A stretch of 64,000 bases of DNA from Lentisphaeria bacterium (lineage in GTDB: Bacteria; Verrucomicrobiota; Lentisphaeria; Victivallales; UBA1829), in the NCBI GenBank assembly GCA_017455665.1, contig JAFSZN010000050.1:183-64182 (forward strand). The letters run 5' to 3'. Of this stretch, positions 4,208-49,950 are shown in pieces. Position numbers and translations under genes: made by a program. Within the stretch, counting starts at the first letter, position 1. Every line of letters begins with the position of its first letter. The notes under the pieces were generated by a model that worked only from the letters and a program-made list of their open reading frames with translations, was not told the origin of the DNA and made no database searches.

Positions 4208-5965
4208 ATGAGCGACAAACCGCTGCCGGACCTGACCCAACCGAAAAGCAAATGGAGCGTCGGCACGCTGACGTACACCGCCGCCGGACTCGCCGTGCTG
4301 TTCGCCCTGCTGCTGTGGGGCGATTTCGCGTGGTCGATGAAGGACCGCGTGGTCTTCCCGATGACCGTGAAGCTGGCGAAGGAACGGTTCGAGCTGAACG
4401 ACACGCTGTATTCCATCCTGATCATTTCGTTCCCGAATTTCACGAACATCTTCCTGATGCCGATCGTGAGCTATCTTTCCGACCGGCACCGCGGCCGCCT
4501 GGGACGCCGCATCCCGTTCCTGCTGTTCACCACGCCGTTCATCGTGGTCGGGTTGCTCGGCATCGGCCTGAACGCGGAGATCGGCGGCGTGATCGAAAAG
4601 ATCACGTCGATGAACGCGCGCACGGCGGCGCTGGTGGCGTTCTGCGTCTTCTGGGTGCTGTTCGACTTCGGCAACACGCTGGCGTCGGCGATCTTCAACG
4701 CCCTCGTGAACGACGTGGTGCCGCAGCGCATCATCGGGCGTTTCTTCAGCCTCTTCCGCATCATCAGCCTGCTGGCGGGCATCCTGTACAACTACTATCT
4801 CTTCGAGCACGCGCTTGACTGGTTCAAGTGGATATTCCTCGTGCTCGGCGCGCGGTATGCCGCGGGACTGTATTCCATGTGCTTCTTCGTGAAGGAAGGC
4901 AAGTATCCGCCGCCGGAGGAGATCCCGGCGGACAAGAGCAAGTTCCAGCGTGTCTTCGGCGCGTTCATCGACTATTTCCGGCAGTGCTTCTCCGTGCCGT
5001 ACTACCGCTGGATCATCGTCGCGCTCCTGCTGGCGAACATCAGCTTCCACCCCATCAACGACTTTTCCATCCAGTACGCCAAGGCGATCGGCGTGCCGGA
5101 CAGCACCTACGGTCAACTGCTCGCGATCACGTACTGTTTCTCCATCGTGCTGAGCTATCCGCTGGGCGCTCTGGCGGACCGGTTCCATCCGATCCGGACC
5201 AGTTTCGTCTCCCTCGCGGCGTACGCGGTCCTGATGCTCGTCGGCTGGCTGGTCGTCAACAATCCCTGGCAGAAGGAGATCACCTACTACATCCCCGGCC
5301 TCATGGCCGACCCGAAGAAGCTCGTCCTGTCCTCCTTCGCGATCGTGTTCATCATTCACGGCGTGGTGTCCGGGTGCTTCTTCACGCTGTCCAGTTCGCT
5401 GCCGCTGCGTCTCTTCCCCGGTTCGATCTTCGCGCAGTTCGCCTCGGCGAACGCCATGATCCTGGCGCTCGGCACCACGGTCATCGTCCCGGCGTTCGGG
5501 TTCTTCCTGGACGTGCAGGACAGCAATTACGACCTGCTGTTCGTGCTCGGCGCGATCCTGTCGCTAATCTCCGCGGTCGCATTCGTGAAGATCCATTTCT
5601 ACTACAAGCGTTTCGGTGGCGACGAGAACTACATCGCGCCTGACGTGATGACGCGCGAGAATATCCGGAAGGCAGGCGACAAGTTCCGGACGTTCATCAT
5701 CCCCGGCGCGGTCGCGGGCATCATCGCCGGATGCCTGTTCGGATACTGGTTCGAAGGTCCGGCGATCCGCGCGGAATACGGCTTCGGCGCATTCTACGGG
5801 CATTTCGTCGACATCATGTTCCGGCAGGCGGCGGACGCGAAGCCGCTTTTGGCGTATCTGCTTTCGGTCGTGACGTTCGGTCTGGTCGGGTTCTTCCTCG
5901 GCGCGCTGATCCCGAACAAGCGCCGTCCTGTGAAACGCGCTTCGGACGAGGCGGAAGCCGCCTGA
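4208..5965 (+). CDS. MFS-type transporter (GPH/SLC45-like)
   Basis: Track ORF starts at 4133. The ATG at 4208 is preceded by AAGGAG (4193-4198). Multiple hydrophobic helices and the loop motif DRHRGRLGRRIPF, typical of MFS loop 2-3. Confidence 0.7.
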   Translation: MSDKPLPDLTQPKSKWSVGTLTYTAAGLAVLFALLLWGDFAWSMKDRVVFPMTVKLAKERFELNDTLYSILIISFPNFTNIFLMPIVSYLSDRHRGRLGRRIPFLLFTTPFIVVGLLGIGLNAEIGGVIEKITSMNARTAALVAFCVFWVLFDFGNTLASAIFNALVNDVVPQRIIGRFFSLFRIISLLAGILYNYYLFEHALDWFKWIFLVLGARYAAGLYSMCFFVKEGKYPPPEEIPADKSKFQRVFGAFIDYFRQCFSVPYYRWIIVALLLANISFHPINDFSIQYAKAIGVPDSTYGQLLAITYCFSIVLSYPLGALADRFHPIRTSFVSLAAYAVLMLVGWLVVNNPWQKEITYYIPGLMADPKKLVLSSFAIVFIIHGVVSGCFFTLSSSLPLRLFPGSIFAQFASANAMILALGTTVIVPAFGFFLDVQDSNYDLLFVLGAILSLISAVAFVKIHFYYKRFGGDENYIAPDVMTRENIRKAGDKFRTFIIPGAVAGIIAGCLFGYWFEGPAIRAEYGFGAFYGHFVDIMFRQAADAKPLLAYLLSVVTFGLVGFFLGALIPNKRRPVKRASDEAEAA

Positions 5966-22652: not shown

Positions 22653-24383
22653 TCAATCCCGCCCCGCCGTCCCGTCATCGGCTTCACCCTCGGACGCCGA
22701 TGCTTTTCTGTGCAGTCTCCACACGATGATGCCGTTTTTCTGCGCCACGATGTCGGCGTCGGCGAATCCCAGCACCGCCCGGATCTCCTTCGGCGCCATC
22801 CGGTTCGTGCCGGTGATGAAGTAGAACGGGACGCGTTCATTTTTCTTCATGAGGTCTTCCAGGAAAGCCGGATCGTCGGAGAGCGCGTAGGGAAACGGCA
22901 GATAGCATCCGGGCTGGGAGAGCAGGCCCGGCGCGAGATTGTCGAACGCGTCGCGAGGCGGCGGATCGCAGACTTTCACCTTCCGCGGCGCGGCGATCTT
23001 GTCGGCGTATTCGTGGATGCGGTTGACCGGGATGACCTTGCGGTCTGTGCCGTGCAGGAAGAACTTGTCGGCGATCGCCGGATTGAACATGGAGAGGAGA
23101 ACCGCGTTTCCGGGGAGGATCGAGCCGAGATATTCCAGTTTCGCGCGGTCGTCCGGGATCCCGCGGATCGCCTTGTGGTAGTCGTTCAGGTTGCGCAGTG
23201 CGACACATTGCAGGATGATCGCCGCGCCCGCGAGAATCCAGCACGCCGTCTGGCGTTTCTTCAGGATCATCCGGAGCAGAAGCGCGGCGGCGGACGCGGC
23301 GGGCGGCAGGACCATGACCAGGATCGGCAGATACATGCGTTTGTCATAGAAGAAATAGACGATGTATAGGACGAAGATGATCGCGCTCTGGAGCAGGGCG
23401 AACGCCATGGACGCCTCCCACGCGGTCCACTTCGGGAGGCTCCGCAGCTTTTCCCCGCGTGCCGTGCGAGAGGCGCGGAACCATGCGGCGCAGACCGCCA
23501 GCAGCGCCATCGTCAGCCAGAAGCCTTTCTCCCGGACCAGACGCGGCAGATATTCCATGGCGTAGCGCGGATGGAATGTCAGGGGCATGAAGTCATACGG
23601 CACGGGACACCAGAAATGATACCCCGTGCGGAACGGCGACCCGAAGACCGCCCAGTTGAAGATGTTGGACGCGAGCAGGACCAGGGCGGTCGGGAACGCG
23701 GCGAGGAACCACAGCAGGAAGCGTTTTTTCCAGTCTTTTTCGCGCATAAAGATCAAAAGGAAGGGCAGGGCGAGCATCGGATACGCAGAGGAACGCACCG
23801 ATCCGCCGAGCGCGATCAGGACGCCGCACCAGATCAGGGAGACCTTGTCGACGCCCGGATGGACCGCGAGCCGCGTCCACAGGATCATCGCCCATACGCA
23901 GAACAGCAGATACGGGACTTCGGTCATCGCGTATCCGGTCAGCGCGATGAAGAACGAACTGAGCAGCAGCACGGGGAACGTCAGGAGTCCGGCAAGTCCG
24001 CCGAACGCCAGGTCGCGCGCGCCTGCAGGTCCGGGACGCACCGTGGTCTGGCGGGCAGACAGGAACATGAGGGAGGCAAGCCCGGCCGCCGCGAGCCAGG
24101 AACCGTAGACCGCGCCGTAGACATCCCCGGAGAGAGCCTGGAACGGAGCAAGGAAGAGCAGGGGAAACCACGGCAGGTAGCGCGACGGATGCAGGACGCC
24201 GTTCAAATAGAACCCGTATTTACCCTCACGCAGAAAATTGTCGGCGCAGAAGGCGTTTTCGAGCGCATCCGGGATCACGAGCCAGCATGTGCCGAATTTC
24301 GCGGGGACATAAAGTCCAAAAATGTCCAGAGCTAGGACCAAAGCGGCGACAATGAAGACGGTACGCTGGAATTTCTGGCTCAT
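22653..24383 (-). CDS. Polytopic membrane glycosyltransferase (GT-C fold, ArnT/PMT-like) with soluble C-terminal domain
   Basis: 576 aa with about 10 or more predicted TM helices in the first ~400 aa. Overall layout resembles GT39/GT83 enzymes. Assignment is by architecture only. Confidence 0.55.
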   Translation of the reverse strand: MSQKFQRTVFIVAALVLALDIFGLYVPAKFGTCWLVIPDALENAFCADNFLREGKYGFYLNGVLHPSRYLPWFPLLFLAPFQALSGDVYGAVYGSWLAAAGLASLMFLSARQTTVRPGPAGARDLAFGGLAGLLTFPVLLLSSFFIALTGYAMTEVPYLLFCVWAMILWTRLAVHPGVDKVSLIWCGVLIALGGSVRSSAYPMLALPFLLIFMREKDWKKRFLLWFLAAFPTALVLLASNIFNWAVFGSPFRTGYHFWCPVPYDFMPLTFHPRYAMEYLPRLVREKGFWLTMALLAVCAAWFRASRTARGEKLRSLPKWTAWEASMAFALLQSAIIFVLYIVYFFYDKRMYLPILVMVLPPAASAAALLLRMILKKRQTACWILAGAAIILQCVALRNLNDYHKAIRGIPDDRAKLEYLGSILPGNAVLLSMFNPAIADKFFLHGTDRKVIPVNRIHEYADKIAAPRKVKVCDPPPRDAFDNLAPGLLSQPGCYLPFPYALSDDPAFLEDLMKKNERVPFYFITGTNRMAPKEIRAVLGFADADIVAQKNGIIVWRLHRKASASEGEADDGTAGRD

Positions 24384-24596
24384 TTTATCTGAAGTCTTCT
24401 GATTTCGAATGTGTTATTACGTTTTACCCGCAAACGGTTCCGTACGGATCACGGATTCCAATATATCACGTTTGAACAAAAAAGCAAACATTCTTTTGAT
24501 TTTTTCAGAAAATGATACAATAAAAGCGTTCCGGGCAGCGTTAAATATCTTGAAAAAGCTCAAATTATACCCAGACGCCCAACCCAGGAGACCACG

Positions 24597-25241
24597 ATGA
24601 AAAAATCATCTTCTTCGAATCCGCAAAAAAACAGCCCTCTGTACAACTTCGTCTTCATCCTTGTTCTGCTTTTCACGGCACTGCCGTTTATTCTTTTTGC
24701 CCTGCTGCAATTCGCGCCTCCTTCGTTCGGATCCTCCAAGAAAACGATCGCGGCTGTTGACAATTCGTCGAAACGCATGACGCTGGAAGAACGCCGCGCC
24801 GCGCGGGAAGAAGCCCGCAAGGCAAGCGAGGCGGCTGCGCTCGCACAGAGAAATGCTGCGTCCGCTCCGATCATGACGACCACGACCGTCACCGGTCCCG
24901 GCATGGGAATGGGACCCGGCATGGGAATGGGACCCGGCATGGACTTCGGCCCCGGCGGCATGGGCGGTTTCGGCGGTCCCGGCATGGGTCCCGGCATGGA
25001 TTTCGGTCCCGGCGGCATGGGCGGCTTCGGCGGTCCCGGCATGGGCGGCATGGACTTCGGTCCCGGCGGCATGGGCGGCTTCGGCGGCGGCATGGGCGGC
25101 TTTGGCGGCGGTATGGGCGGCTTCGGCGGCGGCATGGGCGGCTTTGGCGGCGGTATGGGCGGCTTTGGCGGCGGCATGGGCGGCTTTGGCGGCGGTATGG
25201 GCGGCTTCGGCGGCGGCATGGGCGGCTTCGGCGGTTTCTGA
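24597..25241 (+). CDS. Membrane-anchored Gly/Met/Phe-rich low-complexity repeat protein (hypothetical)
   Basis: AGGAG lies 7 nt upstream of the ATG. TM helix FVFILVLLFTALPFILFALL and a charged helix (EERRAAREEARKASEAAALAQR). This is followed by about 110 aa of (GPGMGM)n, (DFGPGGMGGFGGPGMG)n and 8x GGMGGFGG. A terminator follows at 25270. The antisense Pro-rich ORFs were rejected. Confidence 0.7.
   Translation: MKKSSSSNPQKNSPLYNFVFILVLLFTALPFILFALLQFAPPSFGSSKKTIAAVDNSSKRMTLEERRAAREEARKASEAAALAQRNAASAPIMTTTTVTGPGMGMGPGMGMGPGMDFGPGGMGGFGGPGMGPGMDFGPGGMGGFGGPGMGGMDFGPGGMGGFGGGMGGFGGGMGGFGGGMGGFGGGMGGFGGGMGGFGGGMGGFGGGMGGFGGF
24895..25238 (+). repeat. Short-period coding tandem repeats (24-nt GGCGGCATGGGCGGCTTYGGC units and variants)
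   Basis: The unit ggcggc(a/g)t(a)tgggcggctt(c/t)ggc is reiterated head-to-tail from ~25066 to 25238. It is preceded by ggacccggcatgggaatg and ggtcccggcggcatgggcgg(c/t)ttcggc units. Confidence 0.85.
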
Positions 25242-25269: not shown

Positions 25270-25306
25270 AAACGGTCATTTCTTTTCGGATTTGACCGTT
25301 TTTTTA
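25270..25306 (+). terminator. Rho-independent terminator
   Basis: AAACGGTC/GACCGTTT stem followed by TTTTTATT. Confidence 0.6.
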
Positions 25307-25423
25307 TTGGTTTTGGATTTGTAAACGCACGCATGTGATGTTATATTGATTCTGTCGCGCAAAAACCGGATCGTTCCGCCGGTATGCCCCCTCACAAATC
25401 CTTTTTAATCCAGGAGTGTCATC

Positions 25424-25915
25424 ATGAAGGTGTTGATCGCGGTCGTCATGTTCCTTTTCGGACTCTTTGTCGGGGTTCTCGTTGTTCCGATGTTCAAGGA
25501 GTTCTCCACTCCGTTTTATGCGGAGGAGGAGTATTCCACGCCCCGGATCAAAACGCTCCTGAACGAATTCGGCGTCATTCTCCCCGTTGAGGCGACTGAC
25601 ATCAATCTTTTCCTGCAGCGTAAGGGCGAAGTCCAAAGGGTCTGGGTCAAATTCGACTGCCCGCCAGAAGCGAAAGAGGCGTTTGTCGGCAAACTGAATT
25701 CCATGCATTCCGGATTGTTCAACCAGATCATCGAATCCCCGAAGATGATCGACGGAACCCCGATCATCTGGTGGACCTACAGCAATTCATTCCATTATTA
25801 CGAATTCAAGGATATGTGCGTGGCTTATGACGAACTGATGCACAGGCTGTATCTCTATGCCGTCTCCGGGGATGTCGAGCCGCAGCCTCCCGCGCATCCG
25901 GAGGAGGATGAATAA
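25424..25915 (+). CDS. Hypothetical membrane-anchored protein
   Basis: 163 aa with N-terminal TM MKVLIAVVMFLFGLFVGVLVVPMF and an acidic Pro-rich tail EPQPPAHPEEDE. No family recognised. Confidence 0.55.
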   Translation: MKVLIAVVMFLFGLFVGVLVVPMFKEFSTPFYAEEEYSTPRIKTLLNEFGVILPVEATDINLFLQRKGEVQRVWVKFDCPPEAKEAFVGKLNSMHSGLFNQIIESPKMIDGTPIIWWTYSNSFHYYEFKDMCVAYDELMHRLYLYAVSGDVEPQPPAHPEEDE

Positions 25916-27296: not shown

Positions 27297-27344
27297 CCCG
27301 ATGGCGGCTTGTTTTCCCGTGTTTCCGGTGTATATTAATATCAC

Positions 27345-27440
27345 ACCACGGGGTGCTGGGCTATGCGTCATCCGATGCGCGGCCCGGCTGAGATCATACC
27401 CGCACAACCTGATCCGGATAATGCCGGCGTAGGAAATCGA
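27345..27440 (+). promoter_or_regulatory. TPP (THI-box) riboswitch
   Basis: ACCACGGGGTGCTGGG...GGCTGAGATCATACCCGCACAACCTGATCCGGATAATGCCGGCGTAGGAA contains the conserved GGGGTGC, CTGAGA, ACCC and ACCTGATCCGGATAATGCCGGCG blocks. A CTTTCC/GGAAAG hairpin and a T-run follow; thi4 starts about 75 nt downstream. Confidence 0.85.
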
Positions 27441-27515
27441 CAGCGTCATCCTTTCCGATGGAAAGCCGCCCGCGTTTTCTGCGAAACCATCAACCCAACG
27501 AAAGGACAGACAGCC

Positions 27516-28316
27516 ATGTCGGACTCCTCCTCCCAGGTCATCGAAACGACCATCTCCCGCGCCATCGTCGAAAACTTCTCGGCGAAACTCCTCGACAACC
27601 TCACCGTCGACGTCGCCATCGTCGGCGCCGGCCCGTCCGCGCTCGTCGCGGCGCACTACCTCGCGAAAGCCGGCATCCGCACGGCCATCTTCGAACGCAA
27701 GCTCGCGCCCGGCGGCGGCACGTGGGGCGGCGGCATGCTCTTCAACGAAGTCGTCGTGCAGGACGCCTCGCTCGAGATCCTCGACGAATTCGGCATCAAA
27801 CACAAGCCCATCCCCGGCGCGCCCGGCTACAACACCCTCGATTCCGTCGAAATGGCGAGCGGCCTCATCTTCGGCGCGGTCAGCGCCGGCGCGAAGATAT
27901 TCAACGCCGTCAGCGTCGAGGACATCGTGTTCCGCGGCGAACAGGTCGGCGGCCTCGTCATCAACTGGACGCCCGTCGAACGCCTCGGCATGCACGTGGA
28001 TCCGCTGACCGTGATCTCGCAGTGCGTGCTGGACGGCACCGGCCACCCGAGCGAGATCATGCACCTCGCGGTCGAAAAGGCGCAGCTGAAGCTCGCCACC
28101 AGCACCGGCGGCATCCTCGGCGAAAAGCCCATGTGGGTCGACAGCGGCGAAGCATCCACCGTCGAAAACACCCGCGAATACTTCCCCGGACTCTTCGCCT
28201 GCGGCATGAGCGCGAACAACGTCATGGGCGGATACCGCATGGGCCCGATCTTCGGCGGCATGATGCTCTCCGGACGCAAGGCCGCGGACCTCATCCGCAA
28301 AAGACTCGGGAAGTGA
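27516..28316 (+). CDS. thi4: Thi4-family thiazole synthase (His-type, probably sulfide-dependent)
   Basis: Track ORF is over-extended through the riboswitch; the ATG at 27516 gives [18 protein letters not shown] motif [13 protein letters not shown] and [21 protein letters not shown] has His where I recall the yeast suicide Cys. Confidence 0.85.
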
Positions 28317-28320
28317 CCCG

Positions 28321-28980
28321 ATGCCGCGCCGCGTCTACACCACCCTGAACGAGCGCGTCGAAGCGTTCCGGCGCACGGACGTGTACCCCGTCGTCACGTC
28401 CGAATTCTGCGCCGGACGCAGCCCCGTCGACGTCGCCGCGTCGCTTCTGGCGGGCGGCGTCCGCCTCATGCAGATCCGCGAAAAGACCATGCCCGACCGC
28501 CCGTTCCTCGAGCTCCTGCGGCAGGTCCGCGAGCTCACATGGGACTATGGCGCGCTGCTGATCGTGGACGACCGCGTGGACGCCGCGCTGATCGCGCAGG
28601 CGGACGGCGTGCATCTGGGACAGGAGGATATCCCGCTCCCGGACGCCCGCCGCATCGCCCCGGACCTGCTGATCGGCGTCTCCACGCACAATGCCGACGA
28701 GATACGGCAGGCGCAGTACGAGGGATGTTCCTACCTCAACATCGGCCCGATCTTCCCCACGAAGACCAAACAGCTCGCATGCACGTTCCTCGGCTTGGAA
28801 CAGCTCCGCATGCTGGCGCCGCTCGTGCGCGTGCCGTTCTCCGTGATGGGCGGCATCAAATATGAACACCTCGCGGAACTCAAATCCGCCGGGGCGGGGC
28901 GCATCGCCGCCGTGACAGCCTTCACACAGGCGCCCGATCCCGGCGCGGAAGCCGCCCGCTGGCGCAAAGAACTGCACTGA
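28321..28980 (+). CDS. thiE: Thiamine-phosphate synthase
   Basis: 219 aa with LIVDDRVDAAL, GVHLGQEDIP and a C-terminal MGGI block. Confidence 0.9.
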   Translation: MPRRVYTTLNERVEAFRRTDVYPVVTSEFCAGRSPVDVAASLLAGGVRLMQIREKTMPDRPFLELLRQVRELTWDYGALLIVDDRVDAALIAQADGVHLGQEDIPLPDARRIAPDLLIGVSTHNADEIRQAQYEGCSYLNIGPIFPTKTKQLACTFLGLEQLRMLAPLVRVPFSVMGGIKYEHLAELKSAGAGRIAAVTAFTQAPDPGAEAARWRKELH

Positions 28981-49228: not shown

Positions 49229-49488
49229 TGCCGGATCCCGGTCCGCCGCTTTTTTCGGAGGAGGGGCCTTCGGGCGCGGCTTGATCCCGTTTCGGGAAAA
49301 GGCATATTGAACACACAGCAAATCCCGAATAAAAAAGATACCCTTTAGGGTATACGGTTTCCCCGTGCCCGGTTTTTGAAAAAAAATGGATGCCCGGCAC
49401 AATATCCCGCGCCTTGGGAGCGTTAATTGACCAGAAGCGCGCAACGGAACAAACAAAAACACAACCAACACACAATCAGGTGACTGCA

Positions 49489-49950
49489 ATGAAATCCATC
49501 TCCAATCTTTTTGTCAATAAGCTCTCCGCTCTTTTCCTCATCGCCGCGATCGCCGGCATGGTCTCGGTCAACGCCTATGCTCACACCGATGACTACATGG
49601 GATTCGGCGGATTCCATCACTTCAACGGATTCGGATACGGGTTCGGCGGATTCCATCACTTCAACGGATTCGGATACGGGTTCGGCGGATTCGGCGGATT
49701 CGGCGGATTCGCTCCCGGCATGGAGTTCGGATACGGATTCGGCGGACATCATTTCGACGCTTATTCCGCGGTCGATTTCAACGGATTCGGATATGGCTTC
49801 ACGGCTCAGAACCCTGTTCACGCCTCGAACCGCAAGATCGTCCCTCTGCCGCCCACCGCTTCCACGGTCAACACCTCCATCACTTACGATGAATCCGGCG
49901 AACTCCACGTTCGCCCGTTCGACGACGAAGACCTCTTCGTGGAGGATTGA
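49489..49950 (+). CDS. Secreted Gly/Phe/His/Tyr-rich repeat protein (hypothetical)
   Basis: Track ORF is over-extended; the ATG at 49489 lies 6 nt after AGGTGA. Signal peptide MKSISNLFVNKLSALFLIAAIAGMVSVNAYA. Then MGFGGFHHFNGFGYGFGGFHHFNGFGYGFGGFGGFGGF..., a perfect 39-nt tandem duplication from ~49603, and an acidic C-terminus. Confidence 0.7.
   Translation: MKSISNLFVNKLSALFLIAAIAGMVSVNAYAHTDDYMGFGGFHHFNGFGYGFGGFHHFNGFGYGFGGFGGFGGFAPGMEFGYGFGGHHFDAYSAVDFNGFGYGFTAQNPVHASNRKIVPLPPTASTVNTSITYDESGELHVRPFDDEDLFVED

Follow-up and report, generated by a model that had tools for sequence, protein, structure and literature searches.

In a 64,000-nucleotide (nt) stretch of a Lentisphaeria bacterium assembly (GCA_017455665.1, contig JAFSZN010000050.1, positions 183 to 64,182 of the forward strand; hereafter the window), a gene at 24597 to 25241 encodes a 214-amino-acid (aa) protein that consists of a hydrophobic helix, a short basic helix and a long tail of Gly, Met, Phe, Pro and Asp. 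Judged from sequence searches, it is a member of an undescribed, lineage-restricted family of small proteins. We give a probability of about 35% to the reading that we favour, namely that on the outer side of the inner membrane the protein forms a tethered layer or gel, disordered, elastic and self-cohesive, joined by a second protein, GF2, which is encoded elsewhere in the window and is secreted. It is the bacterial family that is new, exported low-complexity structural or cohesive proteins being already known as such; also new are an upstream motif common to this gene and that of GF2, and the adjacency of the two gene types in another lineage. The architecture, the apparent convergence with the animal elastomer abductin and the seemingly dedicated co-regulation are unusual.

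The gene and its immediate signals are:

24597 to 25241, forward strand: coding sequence, 214 aa, member of type A of the family (open reading frame list, dN/dS, homologues)
24586 to 24590, forward strand: Shine-Dalgarno sequence AGGAG, 6 nt 5' of the ATG (read from the sequence)
25270 to 25305, forward strand: intrinsic-terminator-like hairpin (AAACGGUCA / UGACCGUUU) leading into U7 (folding)

The initial annotation had reported this open reading frame (ORF), its coding strand and a downstream terminator, and all three were found as described. Frames were compared across an orthologue set of six loci from other rumen metagenome-assembled genomes (MAGs), which share 84-88% nucleotide identity with the window over the entire neighbourhood. 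The annotated frame had the lowest ratio of nonsynonymous to synonymous substitution rates (dN/dS) of all frames, with a median of 0.15 over 95 codons, and the variable sites at codon positions 1, 2 and 3 of those first 95 codons numbered 32, 21 and 72. The two alternative forward frames gave values of 1.7 and 3.4, and the frames of the opposite strand 0.26 (a Pro-rich frame), 1.0 and 3.75. The rather low value of the Pro-rich frame arises because it has its wobble positions in common with the annotated frame; stop codons interrupt it in 8 of the 13 homologues compared, the close orthologue L010 among them. GGAG was kept in 7 of 7 aligned sequences (AGGAG in six, TGGAG in L011) and the ATG was conserved too. 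The terminator hairpin (9 bp, 25270-25301) has a folding free energy of -20 kcal/mol (z -3.59), which none of 200 shuffled sequences equalled, and it was missed by a consensus terminator scanner because of its long loop. Moreover, in all 26 full-length members tabulated the C-terminal residue is a Phe placed directly before the stop codon. By these comparisons, 24597-25241 is a real protein-coding gene under purifying selection, to all appearances expressed and monocistronic. Its Gly/Met/Phe-tailed architecture lies far beyond chance, as it recurs in about 50 sequence clusters. The 5' leader matched no Rfam family and its fold was insignificant (z -1.9).

The protein is laid out as follows:

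24636 to 24713, forward strand: hydrophobic helix, residues 14-39, signal-anchor (transmembrane) segment with LPx(L/V)LFAL and then PP (AlphaFold2, predicted local distance difference test, pLDDT, ~90)
24783 to 24851, forward strand: basic Ala/Arg/Glu helix, residues 63-85, (A/E)ERRAxRxEARKA (AlphaFold2, alignment)
24894 to 25238, forward strand: disordered tail, residues 100-214, G70 M19 F14 P9 D3, with Phe at the end (composition; pLDDT below 50 throughout)
24927 to 25087, forward strand: 57-nt (19-aa) units of approximately GPGMDFGPGGMGGFGGPGM, 2.9 copies, each with GMDFGPGG (MDF at residues 115, 134 and 152) (Tandem Repeats Finder)
25065 to 25232, forward strand: eight perfect GGMGGFG heptads (21-nt units), followed by GF and the stop codon (Tandem Repeats Finder, written-out translation)

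AlphaFold2 and amino acid composition agreed with the single hydrophobic anchor, charged helix and disordered Gly/Met/Phe tail that had been proposed from the sequence. With a 21-sequence alignment, everything beyond residue ~88 was predicted to be disordered, and the models of the family and of GF2 showed no more than the two helices (transmembrane and basic) and a small hairpin, which made them too poor for a fold search. In the family alignment P30 of the anchor segment is invariant and L29, F34, A35, P41 and P42 are conserved in at least 90% of the sequences, while in the basic helix E65, A68 and E72 are invariant and R66, R67, R70 and R74 reach at least 90%, the motif being kept even in the remotest members. 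The tail (115 aa) is 61% Gly, 16.5% Met, 12% Phe and 8% Pro, includes 14 F-G dipeptides and has no His, Cys, Tyr or Lys; the whole protein lacks Cys and has a single Tyr, Y16, in the hydrophobic helix. The terminal array had been described as 24-nt units encoding GGMGGFGG octads, a description that needs correction: the actual unit is the 21-nt heptad GGMGGFG (period 21 nt, 8.1 copies, 93% matches, score 293 in Tandem Repeats Finder). The synonymous variation noted among the copies (TTC/TTT, GGC/GGT) is real. As to codon usage in the tail (24894-25238), GGT accounts for 11 of the 70 Gly codons, compared with 1 of 135 in a set of six housekeeping genes from the window, and CCC for 9 of 9 Pro codons, compared with 33 CCC and 39 CCG in the background.

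The initial annotation had recognised no bacterial family with this architecture, and profile searches came to the same result. The best Pfam E-value of the window protein was 0.014 (CAMSAP_CC1, 15.8 bits; cut-off 27), and no Pfam family was significantly recurrent across 21 members, the best member-level E-value being 0.0059 (DUF2561, in 7 of the 21). NCBIfam gave no match, and in the PDB profile search of the window protein and aligned members no E-value was better than 1.2. Weak matches to Keratin_2_head, DUF2561 and DUF4834 were rejected as compositional. A word-indexed search retrieved about 40 homologues of 125-214 aa, for which the sole source name was 'hypothetical protein [Lentisphaeria bacterium]', and when a hidden Markov model of the N-terminal 103 positions was run exhaustively against 1.84 billion cluster representatives, 50 proteins were returned at E <= 1e-3. 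Species-representative genomes yielded 12 loci, all in ruminant-gut MAGs labelled Victivallales, Lentisphaeria or uncultured rumen bacterium; indeed, every member with a nameable source came from a ruminant-gut Lentisphaeria or Victivallales metagenome or MAG. The window derives from a MAG of this sort as well. The exact window protein was not found in a collection of 5.8 billion clusters, and the literature searched on Victivallales, GGMGG, FG repeats of Planctomycetes and disordered proteins of the periplasm contained no description of the family.

The N-terminal region of the relatives was compared, as the initial annotation had suggested, and the anchor and the ERRA helix proved to be kept. 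In the alignments (A1 and A3), which have the window protein as first sequence, columns M1, N8, P30, E65, A68 and E72 are invariant. The family N-terminus reads MK(K/N)(S/T)...N(P/T)QK, with N8 as the invariant Asn, and leads into a hydrophobic helix of 22-26 residues, PP, a linker of ~20 aa, the basic helix (A/E)ERRAxRxEARKAKK, in which an Ala recurs every 3-4 residues, and a tail that ends in Phe. The window protein has all the family-defining features, that is, the N-terminal Lys segment, LPx(L/V)LFAL with PP, (A/E)ERRAxRxEAR and the low-complexity tail. Two types of paralogue, ~35% identical as proteins, occur within single genomes (RUG11954, loci L010 and L015; RUG10770, loci L006 and L017). 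Type A, to which the window protein belongs, is marked by TTTTV, by units of GMDFGPGG and by heptads that can expand; in type B, FDNGMAM(G/A)PG is invariant and the tails measure 40-66 aa. The region concerned in type B (A1 columns ~140-152; L012-L017, P0067, P0078) reads FDN(G/S/N)MAM(G/A)PG, near-invariant within an otherwise compositional tail; type A and GF2 repeat GMDFG(P)G instead.

Tail length was also compared among relatives, again as had been suggested, and ranged in type A from 33 to 124 aa. The repeat unit changes from lineage to lineage, from GGMGGFG in the window to GPGGMGGFGG in L010 and GGMGGMGGFG in L009, and the Met/Phe ratio across homologue tails runs from 0.5 to 1.6, with just 3-5 Met in some of them. 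Given this drift, most of the tail keeps its composition and spacing and not its sequence; the exceptions are the GMDFG and FDNGMAM motifs embedded in it. In remoter members the anchor and the ERRA helix persist, with tails rich in G/F/P/D/N/Q. A subfamily (P0047, P0065, P0071, P0080, P0083 and locus L021, 6001-6597) combines the anchor and the ERRA helix with a different tail carrying the short conserved motifs APRSKQATPYxPGTVPGDSGV ... RRIDPDDPFFQQxIPNPF, which suggests, at the level of sequence, that this tail may bind a partner via linear motifs. P0084 (L080/L081, 1916-2488) is a distant match with an anchor, a Glu/Lys helix and a Q/G/M/F-rich tail; it lies among many small same-strand genes without known domains, which give its surroundings a phage-like look, and a tblastn search for it against 50,697 phage genomes produced no match.

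The gene is connected to GF2 by its upstream region, and the elements involved are:

24494 to 24546, forward strand: promoter-like module of TTTTG plus a T-run, TACAATAA, a 12-nt spacer and CAGCGTTAAAT (invariant blocks in six orthologous loci)
49396 to 49430, forward strand: second bipartite motif, GGCACAATAT-N12-GAGCGTTAATTGA, 5' of the GF2 gene (kept 5' of the GF2 orthologues in L074, L075 and L071)
49489 to 49950, forward strand: GF2, a secreted 153-aa protein with a G/F/Y/H/M/D low-complexity region (GFGGFHHFNGFGYGFGG / GMDFGG-type) (ATG at 49489, signal peptide ...AYA↓H, the arrow marking the cleavage site)

Among the orthologues, the 213-nt spacer upstream of the gene is conserved beyond the gene's own synonymous sites. 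The motif takes the form TTTTG/T-run ... YRCAATAW-N11/12-NNGCGTTAWWT(GA), with fixed spacing, and was also found 5' of the type B paralogues and of GF2. In the 64-kb window it occurs at the type A gene and at GF2 only, with 0 occurrences expected in shuffles. When the window was scanned with a position weight matrix, the site at 49396 scored 39.2 and the type A site 32.6, the next best score being 13.6 and the maximum of 20 shuffles 18.9. Of the 23 loci examined, 16 had a single copy of the strict motif just 5' of their family gene, and relaxed patterns added L020 and the GF2 genes. A metagenome-wide scan gave 47 matches, of which just 6 were real (all at type A or type B genes from rumen samples); the other matches were rejected as chance occurrences in AT-rich DNA. 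Loci with the motif 5' of family or GF2 genes include L001-L017, L044-L045, L055, L068, L071 and L074.

With its fixed spacing, the bipartite motif looks like a two-part promoter. The arrangement YACAAT-N16/17-CGTTAA recalls the -35/-10 geometry seen with alternative sigma factors of the extracytoplasmic function (ECF) type, from which we infer the sigma assignment, and the motif could be an alternative-sigma promoter, or else an operator, of a small regulon of exported Gly/Phe-rich proteins. Under the promoter assignment, the transcript would start a few nt past GCGTTAAAT.

GF2 has 100% identity with P0091 ('hypothetical protein IJT68_03490 [Lentisphaeria bacterium]') and comes from a large Lentisphaeria family, as yet uncharacterised, for which there were at least 247 matches. 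Its signal peptide is fairly conserved and its acidic C-terminus, RKIVPxPxxAS..SIxYDExGxxHVRPFDDEDLFVED, is invariant, and AlphaFold2 predicted only a beta-hairpin at residues 129-143. The initial annotation had listed GF2 as a second, exported GF-rich protein of different build. Export and position hold; the independence of the two genes does not, as they have the upstream motif and GMDFGG in common. In L071, a 73-kb rumen contig of a more distant lineage, a GF2 gene (1791-2219) follows an anchored member (1116-1499) on the same strand after a gap of 292 nt, both genes having a copy of the motif to themselves (region 1038-2219), and P0079 is a read-through product of the L071-type arrangement in another assembly. 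In a distant lineage represented by L076 (2-253, 1387-1947) and L077 (2-346, 1484-1798), both flanking genes encode GGMGG(M)GGF low-complexity segments and an ordinary TTGACT-N16-TATATT promoter stands instead of the bipartite motif.

FG domains and Cu(I)-binding proteins had been named as analogues of the tail, but the closest compositional analogue is abductin, a random-coil elastomer with a GGFGGMGGGX repeat, 58% Gly and rich in Met and Phe (PMC9999432). The likeness to the tail, with its 61% Gly, 16.5% Met and 12% Phe, is one of composition only. In both, di- and tri-Gly blocks are split by single Phe or Met residues, the tail unit being GGMGGFG; the lengths are close (116 aa for mature abductin, 115 aa for the tail); and both are random coils and exported, the tail by prediction and by inference, respectively. 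The unit of the tail is a heptad whereas that of abductin is a decapeptide, Pro makes up 8% of the tail and 1% of abductin, and the tail lacks the cross-link residues Lys, Tyr and Cys. Abductin has an Ala-rich N-terminal domain with Cys/Tyr cross-link sites and is a bulk extracellular matrix, whereas the family protein has a transmembrane helix and an Arg/Glu helix, by which it would be tethered. One protein being animal and the other bacterial, with no homology between them, the likeness is convergent.

Other known systems resemble parts of the protein. FG-nucleoporin domains and the PEX13 YG domain form cohesive selective phases. Like them, the tail is anchored, disordered and uncharged, with regularly spaced aromatics beside Gly, and self-cohesion is plausible; its spacers, however, are Gly and Pro only, where nucleoporins have polar Ser/Thr/Asn/Gln, Met is a co-equal sticker, and there is no pore scaffold domain, no transport-receptor system and no sequence relationship, the setting being a bacterial envelope. 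The yeast Hsp40 Sis1 has a G/M region that is a source of GGMGG, and GMDFG recalls the D-I/V-F (DIF) motif of DnaJ G/F regions. The flexible, weakly hydrophobic Gly-Met and Gly-Phe low complexity of such J-protein regions and of the GroEL (GGM)n tail is similar to that of the family tail, but those segments are appendages of ATP-dependent cytoplasmic chaperones, the family tail is likely non-cytoplasmic and 5-10x longer than that of GroEL, and none of 21 members has a DnaJ or Cpn60 domain in Pfam. TolA and TonB have an N-in single-pass anchor and a charged or extended periplasmic spacer, the TolA helix being Lys/Ala/Glu-rich. The family would share with them such an anchor and a charged spacer projecting into the periplasm; it differs in having no C-terminal globular domain, no SHLS/His anchor motif and no tolQR or exbBD neighbours, and the MttA_Hcf106, TolA and TonB Pfam domains gave no match even at E <= 1. 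By analogy, then, the tail would work most like abductin, FG/YG cohesive domains or chaperone GGM/GF tails, and it is a member of none of these groups; homology is absent, and their defining contexts (cross-link sites, pore scaffold, chaperone domain) are not present.

Gene neighbourhood was rejected as a functional clue, as the type A gene is solitary and syntenic within its genus only, and the neighbours of the paralogues are unrelated (trp operon, amtB-glnK, PFOR, YdbH-like, rhaA). Nine distinct neighbourhoods contained no cop, cus, cue or other metal-resistance genes; in the neighbourhoods examined, no sec, yidC, bam or chaperone genes adjoin any member, no tat, tol or exb genes lie beside members, and no msr genes are near them.

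In the reading that we favour, the protein would sit in the inner membrane with its N-terminus inside and its C-terminus outside, so that the basic helix and the tail would extend into the periplasm or envelope. This topology is probable: across the family the N-terminal flank has 1-3 Lys/Arg and 0-1 acidic residues, in type B there is almost no net charge in the 15 residues past the helix, and the partner GF2, with its like low-complexity sequence, is Sec-exported. The hydrophobic helix is probably a retained anchor: signal peptides that are cleaved are typically neither as long as its 22-26 residues nor as conserved. The tail, probably a cohesive random coil by analogy with known systems, may be regarded as a sticker-and-spacer chain in which interchangeable Phe and Met stickers recur every 3-4 residues, separated by a pure Gly spacer, and GMDFG is embedded. 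It would then behave as a highly flexible, self-cohesive coil, as in abductin and FG/YG domains, and many anchored copies, together with co-regulated secreted GF2, would build an elastic gel-like layer. Such a gel could provide mechanical cushioning, or it could be a matrix in which envelope proteins with similar low-complexity sequence are retained or to which they are recruited. In-frame gain or loss of 21-nt repeats would tune the length of the tail without harm to function.

A wider version of this idea is doubtful: several co-regulated exported Gly/Phe/Met(/Tyr/His) families, under one promoter motif and possibly an alternative sigma factor, would together make an envelope gel or condensate, an independent counterpart of abductin elastomers or FG/YG phases, with GMDFG as a recruitment ticket. 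This gene and its type B paralogue would supply the part anchored in the inner membrane, and GF2 the secreted part.

Several observations weigh against the layer or gel that we propose. The topology of type A is weakly determined, the K/R counts being +3 ahead of the helix and +2 within 15 residues of its end, and the segment 16-60 residues past the anchor is strongly basic (8-11 K/R compared with 4-8 D/E). A possible cleavage pattern after PP (VDA↓S, SFG↓S) implies that the hydrophobic segment might be removed. Abductin requires covalent cross-links through Tyr, Lys or Cys and the tail has none of them. FDNGMAM(G/A)PG, GMDFG and the P0047/L021-type tail hint at specific partner binding over generic cohesion. 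As regards tail length, P0001 and L009 have an identical N-terminal region of ~110 aa and tails of 42 and 124 aa, respectively; contigs L007, L008 and L011 end within the repeat, and L006 is frameshifted there (about 5560-5684). Because of this mismatch and the broken contigs, part of the variation may be short-read repeat collapse. Furthermore, short single-gene contigs that might have been transcript assemblies were rejected as such, being metagenome scaffolds.

The cleavage pattern is also the starting point of the alternative that fares best, although we consider it unlikely. Here the hydrophobic segment would be a long Sec signal peptide cut after PP-x-x-(D/N)-(A/T/G), and the mature protein (basic helix and G/M/F tail) would be soluble, disordered and either periplasmic or extracellular, forming with GF2 a secreted matrix, coacervate or adhesive. 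In most members small residues do occupy positions -3 and -1 past PP (VDA↓S, SDA↓T, VNA↓S, SFG↓S), GF2 is clearly secreted by means of a cleavable signal peptide, and in squid beak, secreted Gly/aromatic/His-rich proteins form coacervates. A hydrophobic stretch of 22-26 residues, however, exceeds the h-region of typical cleaved signal peptides, and conservation of LPxLLFAL, Pro30, N8 and Q10 across paralogues that are ~35% identical would be unusual for a disposable one, though the signal peptide of GF2 is fairly conserved too.

The membrane anchor, with a conserved transmembrane helix like that of a membrane-complex subunit, would also suit a holdase-type chaperone brush, the tail of which would bind exposed hydrophobic segments of unfolded envelope proteins as they leave the translocon, in the manner of the (GGM)n tails within GroEL or the G/F and G/M regions of J-domain proteins. 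The GGM-type sequence of the tail resembles GroEL tails, which are a subject of PMC12571646. GGMGG also turns up in papers on yeast Hsp40 (Sis1; PMC2289895 and 10.1101/2024.02.05.578849). We rate this function as less likely still: no J, chaperonin or Spy/CpxP domain was found, no sec, yidC, bam or chaperone genes are neighbours in the examined loci, and neither the 33-124-aa spread in length nor the co-regulation with the low-complexity GF2 is predicted by it.

The excess of basic residues past the anchor could instead mean that the topology is inverted, with the N-terminus outside and the basic helix and tail in the cytoplasm, either as a DnaK-interacting G/F-like region or as a condensate scaffold. 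The 8-11 K/R compared with 4-8 D/E would fit the positive-inside rule if distant charges count, and GMDFG has some likeness to the D-I/V-F motif of DnaJ. We nevertheless find such an orientation improbable, as an N-terminal flank with 1-3 Lys/Arg and hardly any acidic residues disfavours its own translocation, and a Sec signal peptide of the classical cleavable kind is carried by GF2, a co-regulated protein in which GMDFGG-type sequence is found too.

Copper-resistance proteins can have periplasmic segments rich in Met, and Cu(I)/Ag(I) binding by the tail had been suggested as a property to look for. Its 19 regularly spaced Met residues (16.5%) might thus act as a soft-metal buffer, with the Met thioethers binding periplasmic Cu(I) or Ag(I). 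The evidence disfavours this, and we regard it as quite improbable: the tail has neither His nor Cys, Met is swapped for Phe (Met/Phe 0.5-1.6) and drops to 3-5 residues in some tails, the examined neighbourhoods contain no metal genes, and the upstream motif is common to GF2 and not to metal genes. The conserved Met/His ligand motifs and the linkage to copper genes that characterise Met-rich Cu(I) proteins of the CopA/PcoA/CusF type are likewise not seen here.

The high content of solvent-exposed Met in the tail raises a further alternative, an oxidant sink or redox switch, in which Met would scavenge oxidants at the envelope of a strict anaerobe, or oxidation would melt the association of the tails. 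Oxidation-regulated self-association of Met-rich low-complexity domains is a topic of PMC10576115 and PMC8394241, and an antioxidant role of Met in exoproteins one of PMC5526929. Met content is not conserved as such, however, and no msr genes were seen in the examined neighbourhoods, so such a role is very improbable. Finally, it is hardly conceivable that the locus is non-coding repeat DNA or that its product is the antisense Pro-rich ORF (24560..25219, reverse strand), which is open over 219 aa in the window with a dN/dS of 0.26, since that frame is broken in 8 of 13 homologues and has no conserved start codon or ribosome-binding site, while the forward frame has the lowest dN/dS, a conserved Shine-Dalgarno sequence and ATG, and a terminator, and its N-terminus and Phe-stop are conserved across about 50 clusters.

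Around the gene, two flanking genes are syntenic with type A in the genus and have no Pfam or NCBIfam match. One (22653-24383, reverse strand) encodes a 576-aa polytopic membrane protein and the other (25424-25915, forward strand) a protein of 163 aa that has a hydrophobic segment at its N-terminus. At 25319-25347 the sequence matches a sigma-70-like promoter. Further downstream, a thiamine pyrophosphate (TPP) riboswitch (RF00059, 57.5 bits) at 27339-27453 was noted 5' of a thi4-like gene (27363-28316) and a thiamine-phosphate synthase gene (28321-28980).

To our knowledge, natural low-complexity proteins that form phases or elastomers are well studied in eukaryotes, and in bacteria they are known almost exclusively from the cytoplasm. 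A natural exported bacterial example was not found in the literature, which yielded only an engineered surface-display system. Since the repeat breaks or distorts short-read assemblies, genes of this kind are under-represented in MAG annotations. The family, with its membrane-tethered, abductin-like tail, its regulatory motif and its secreted partner, would thus be a concrete and testable case of disordered material in a bacterial envelope, and it offers natural short sequences that may be of use for protein-based elastomers or hydrogels.

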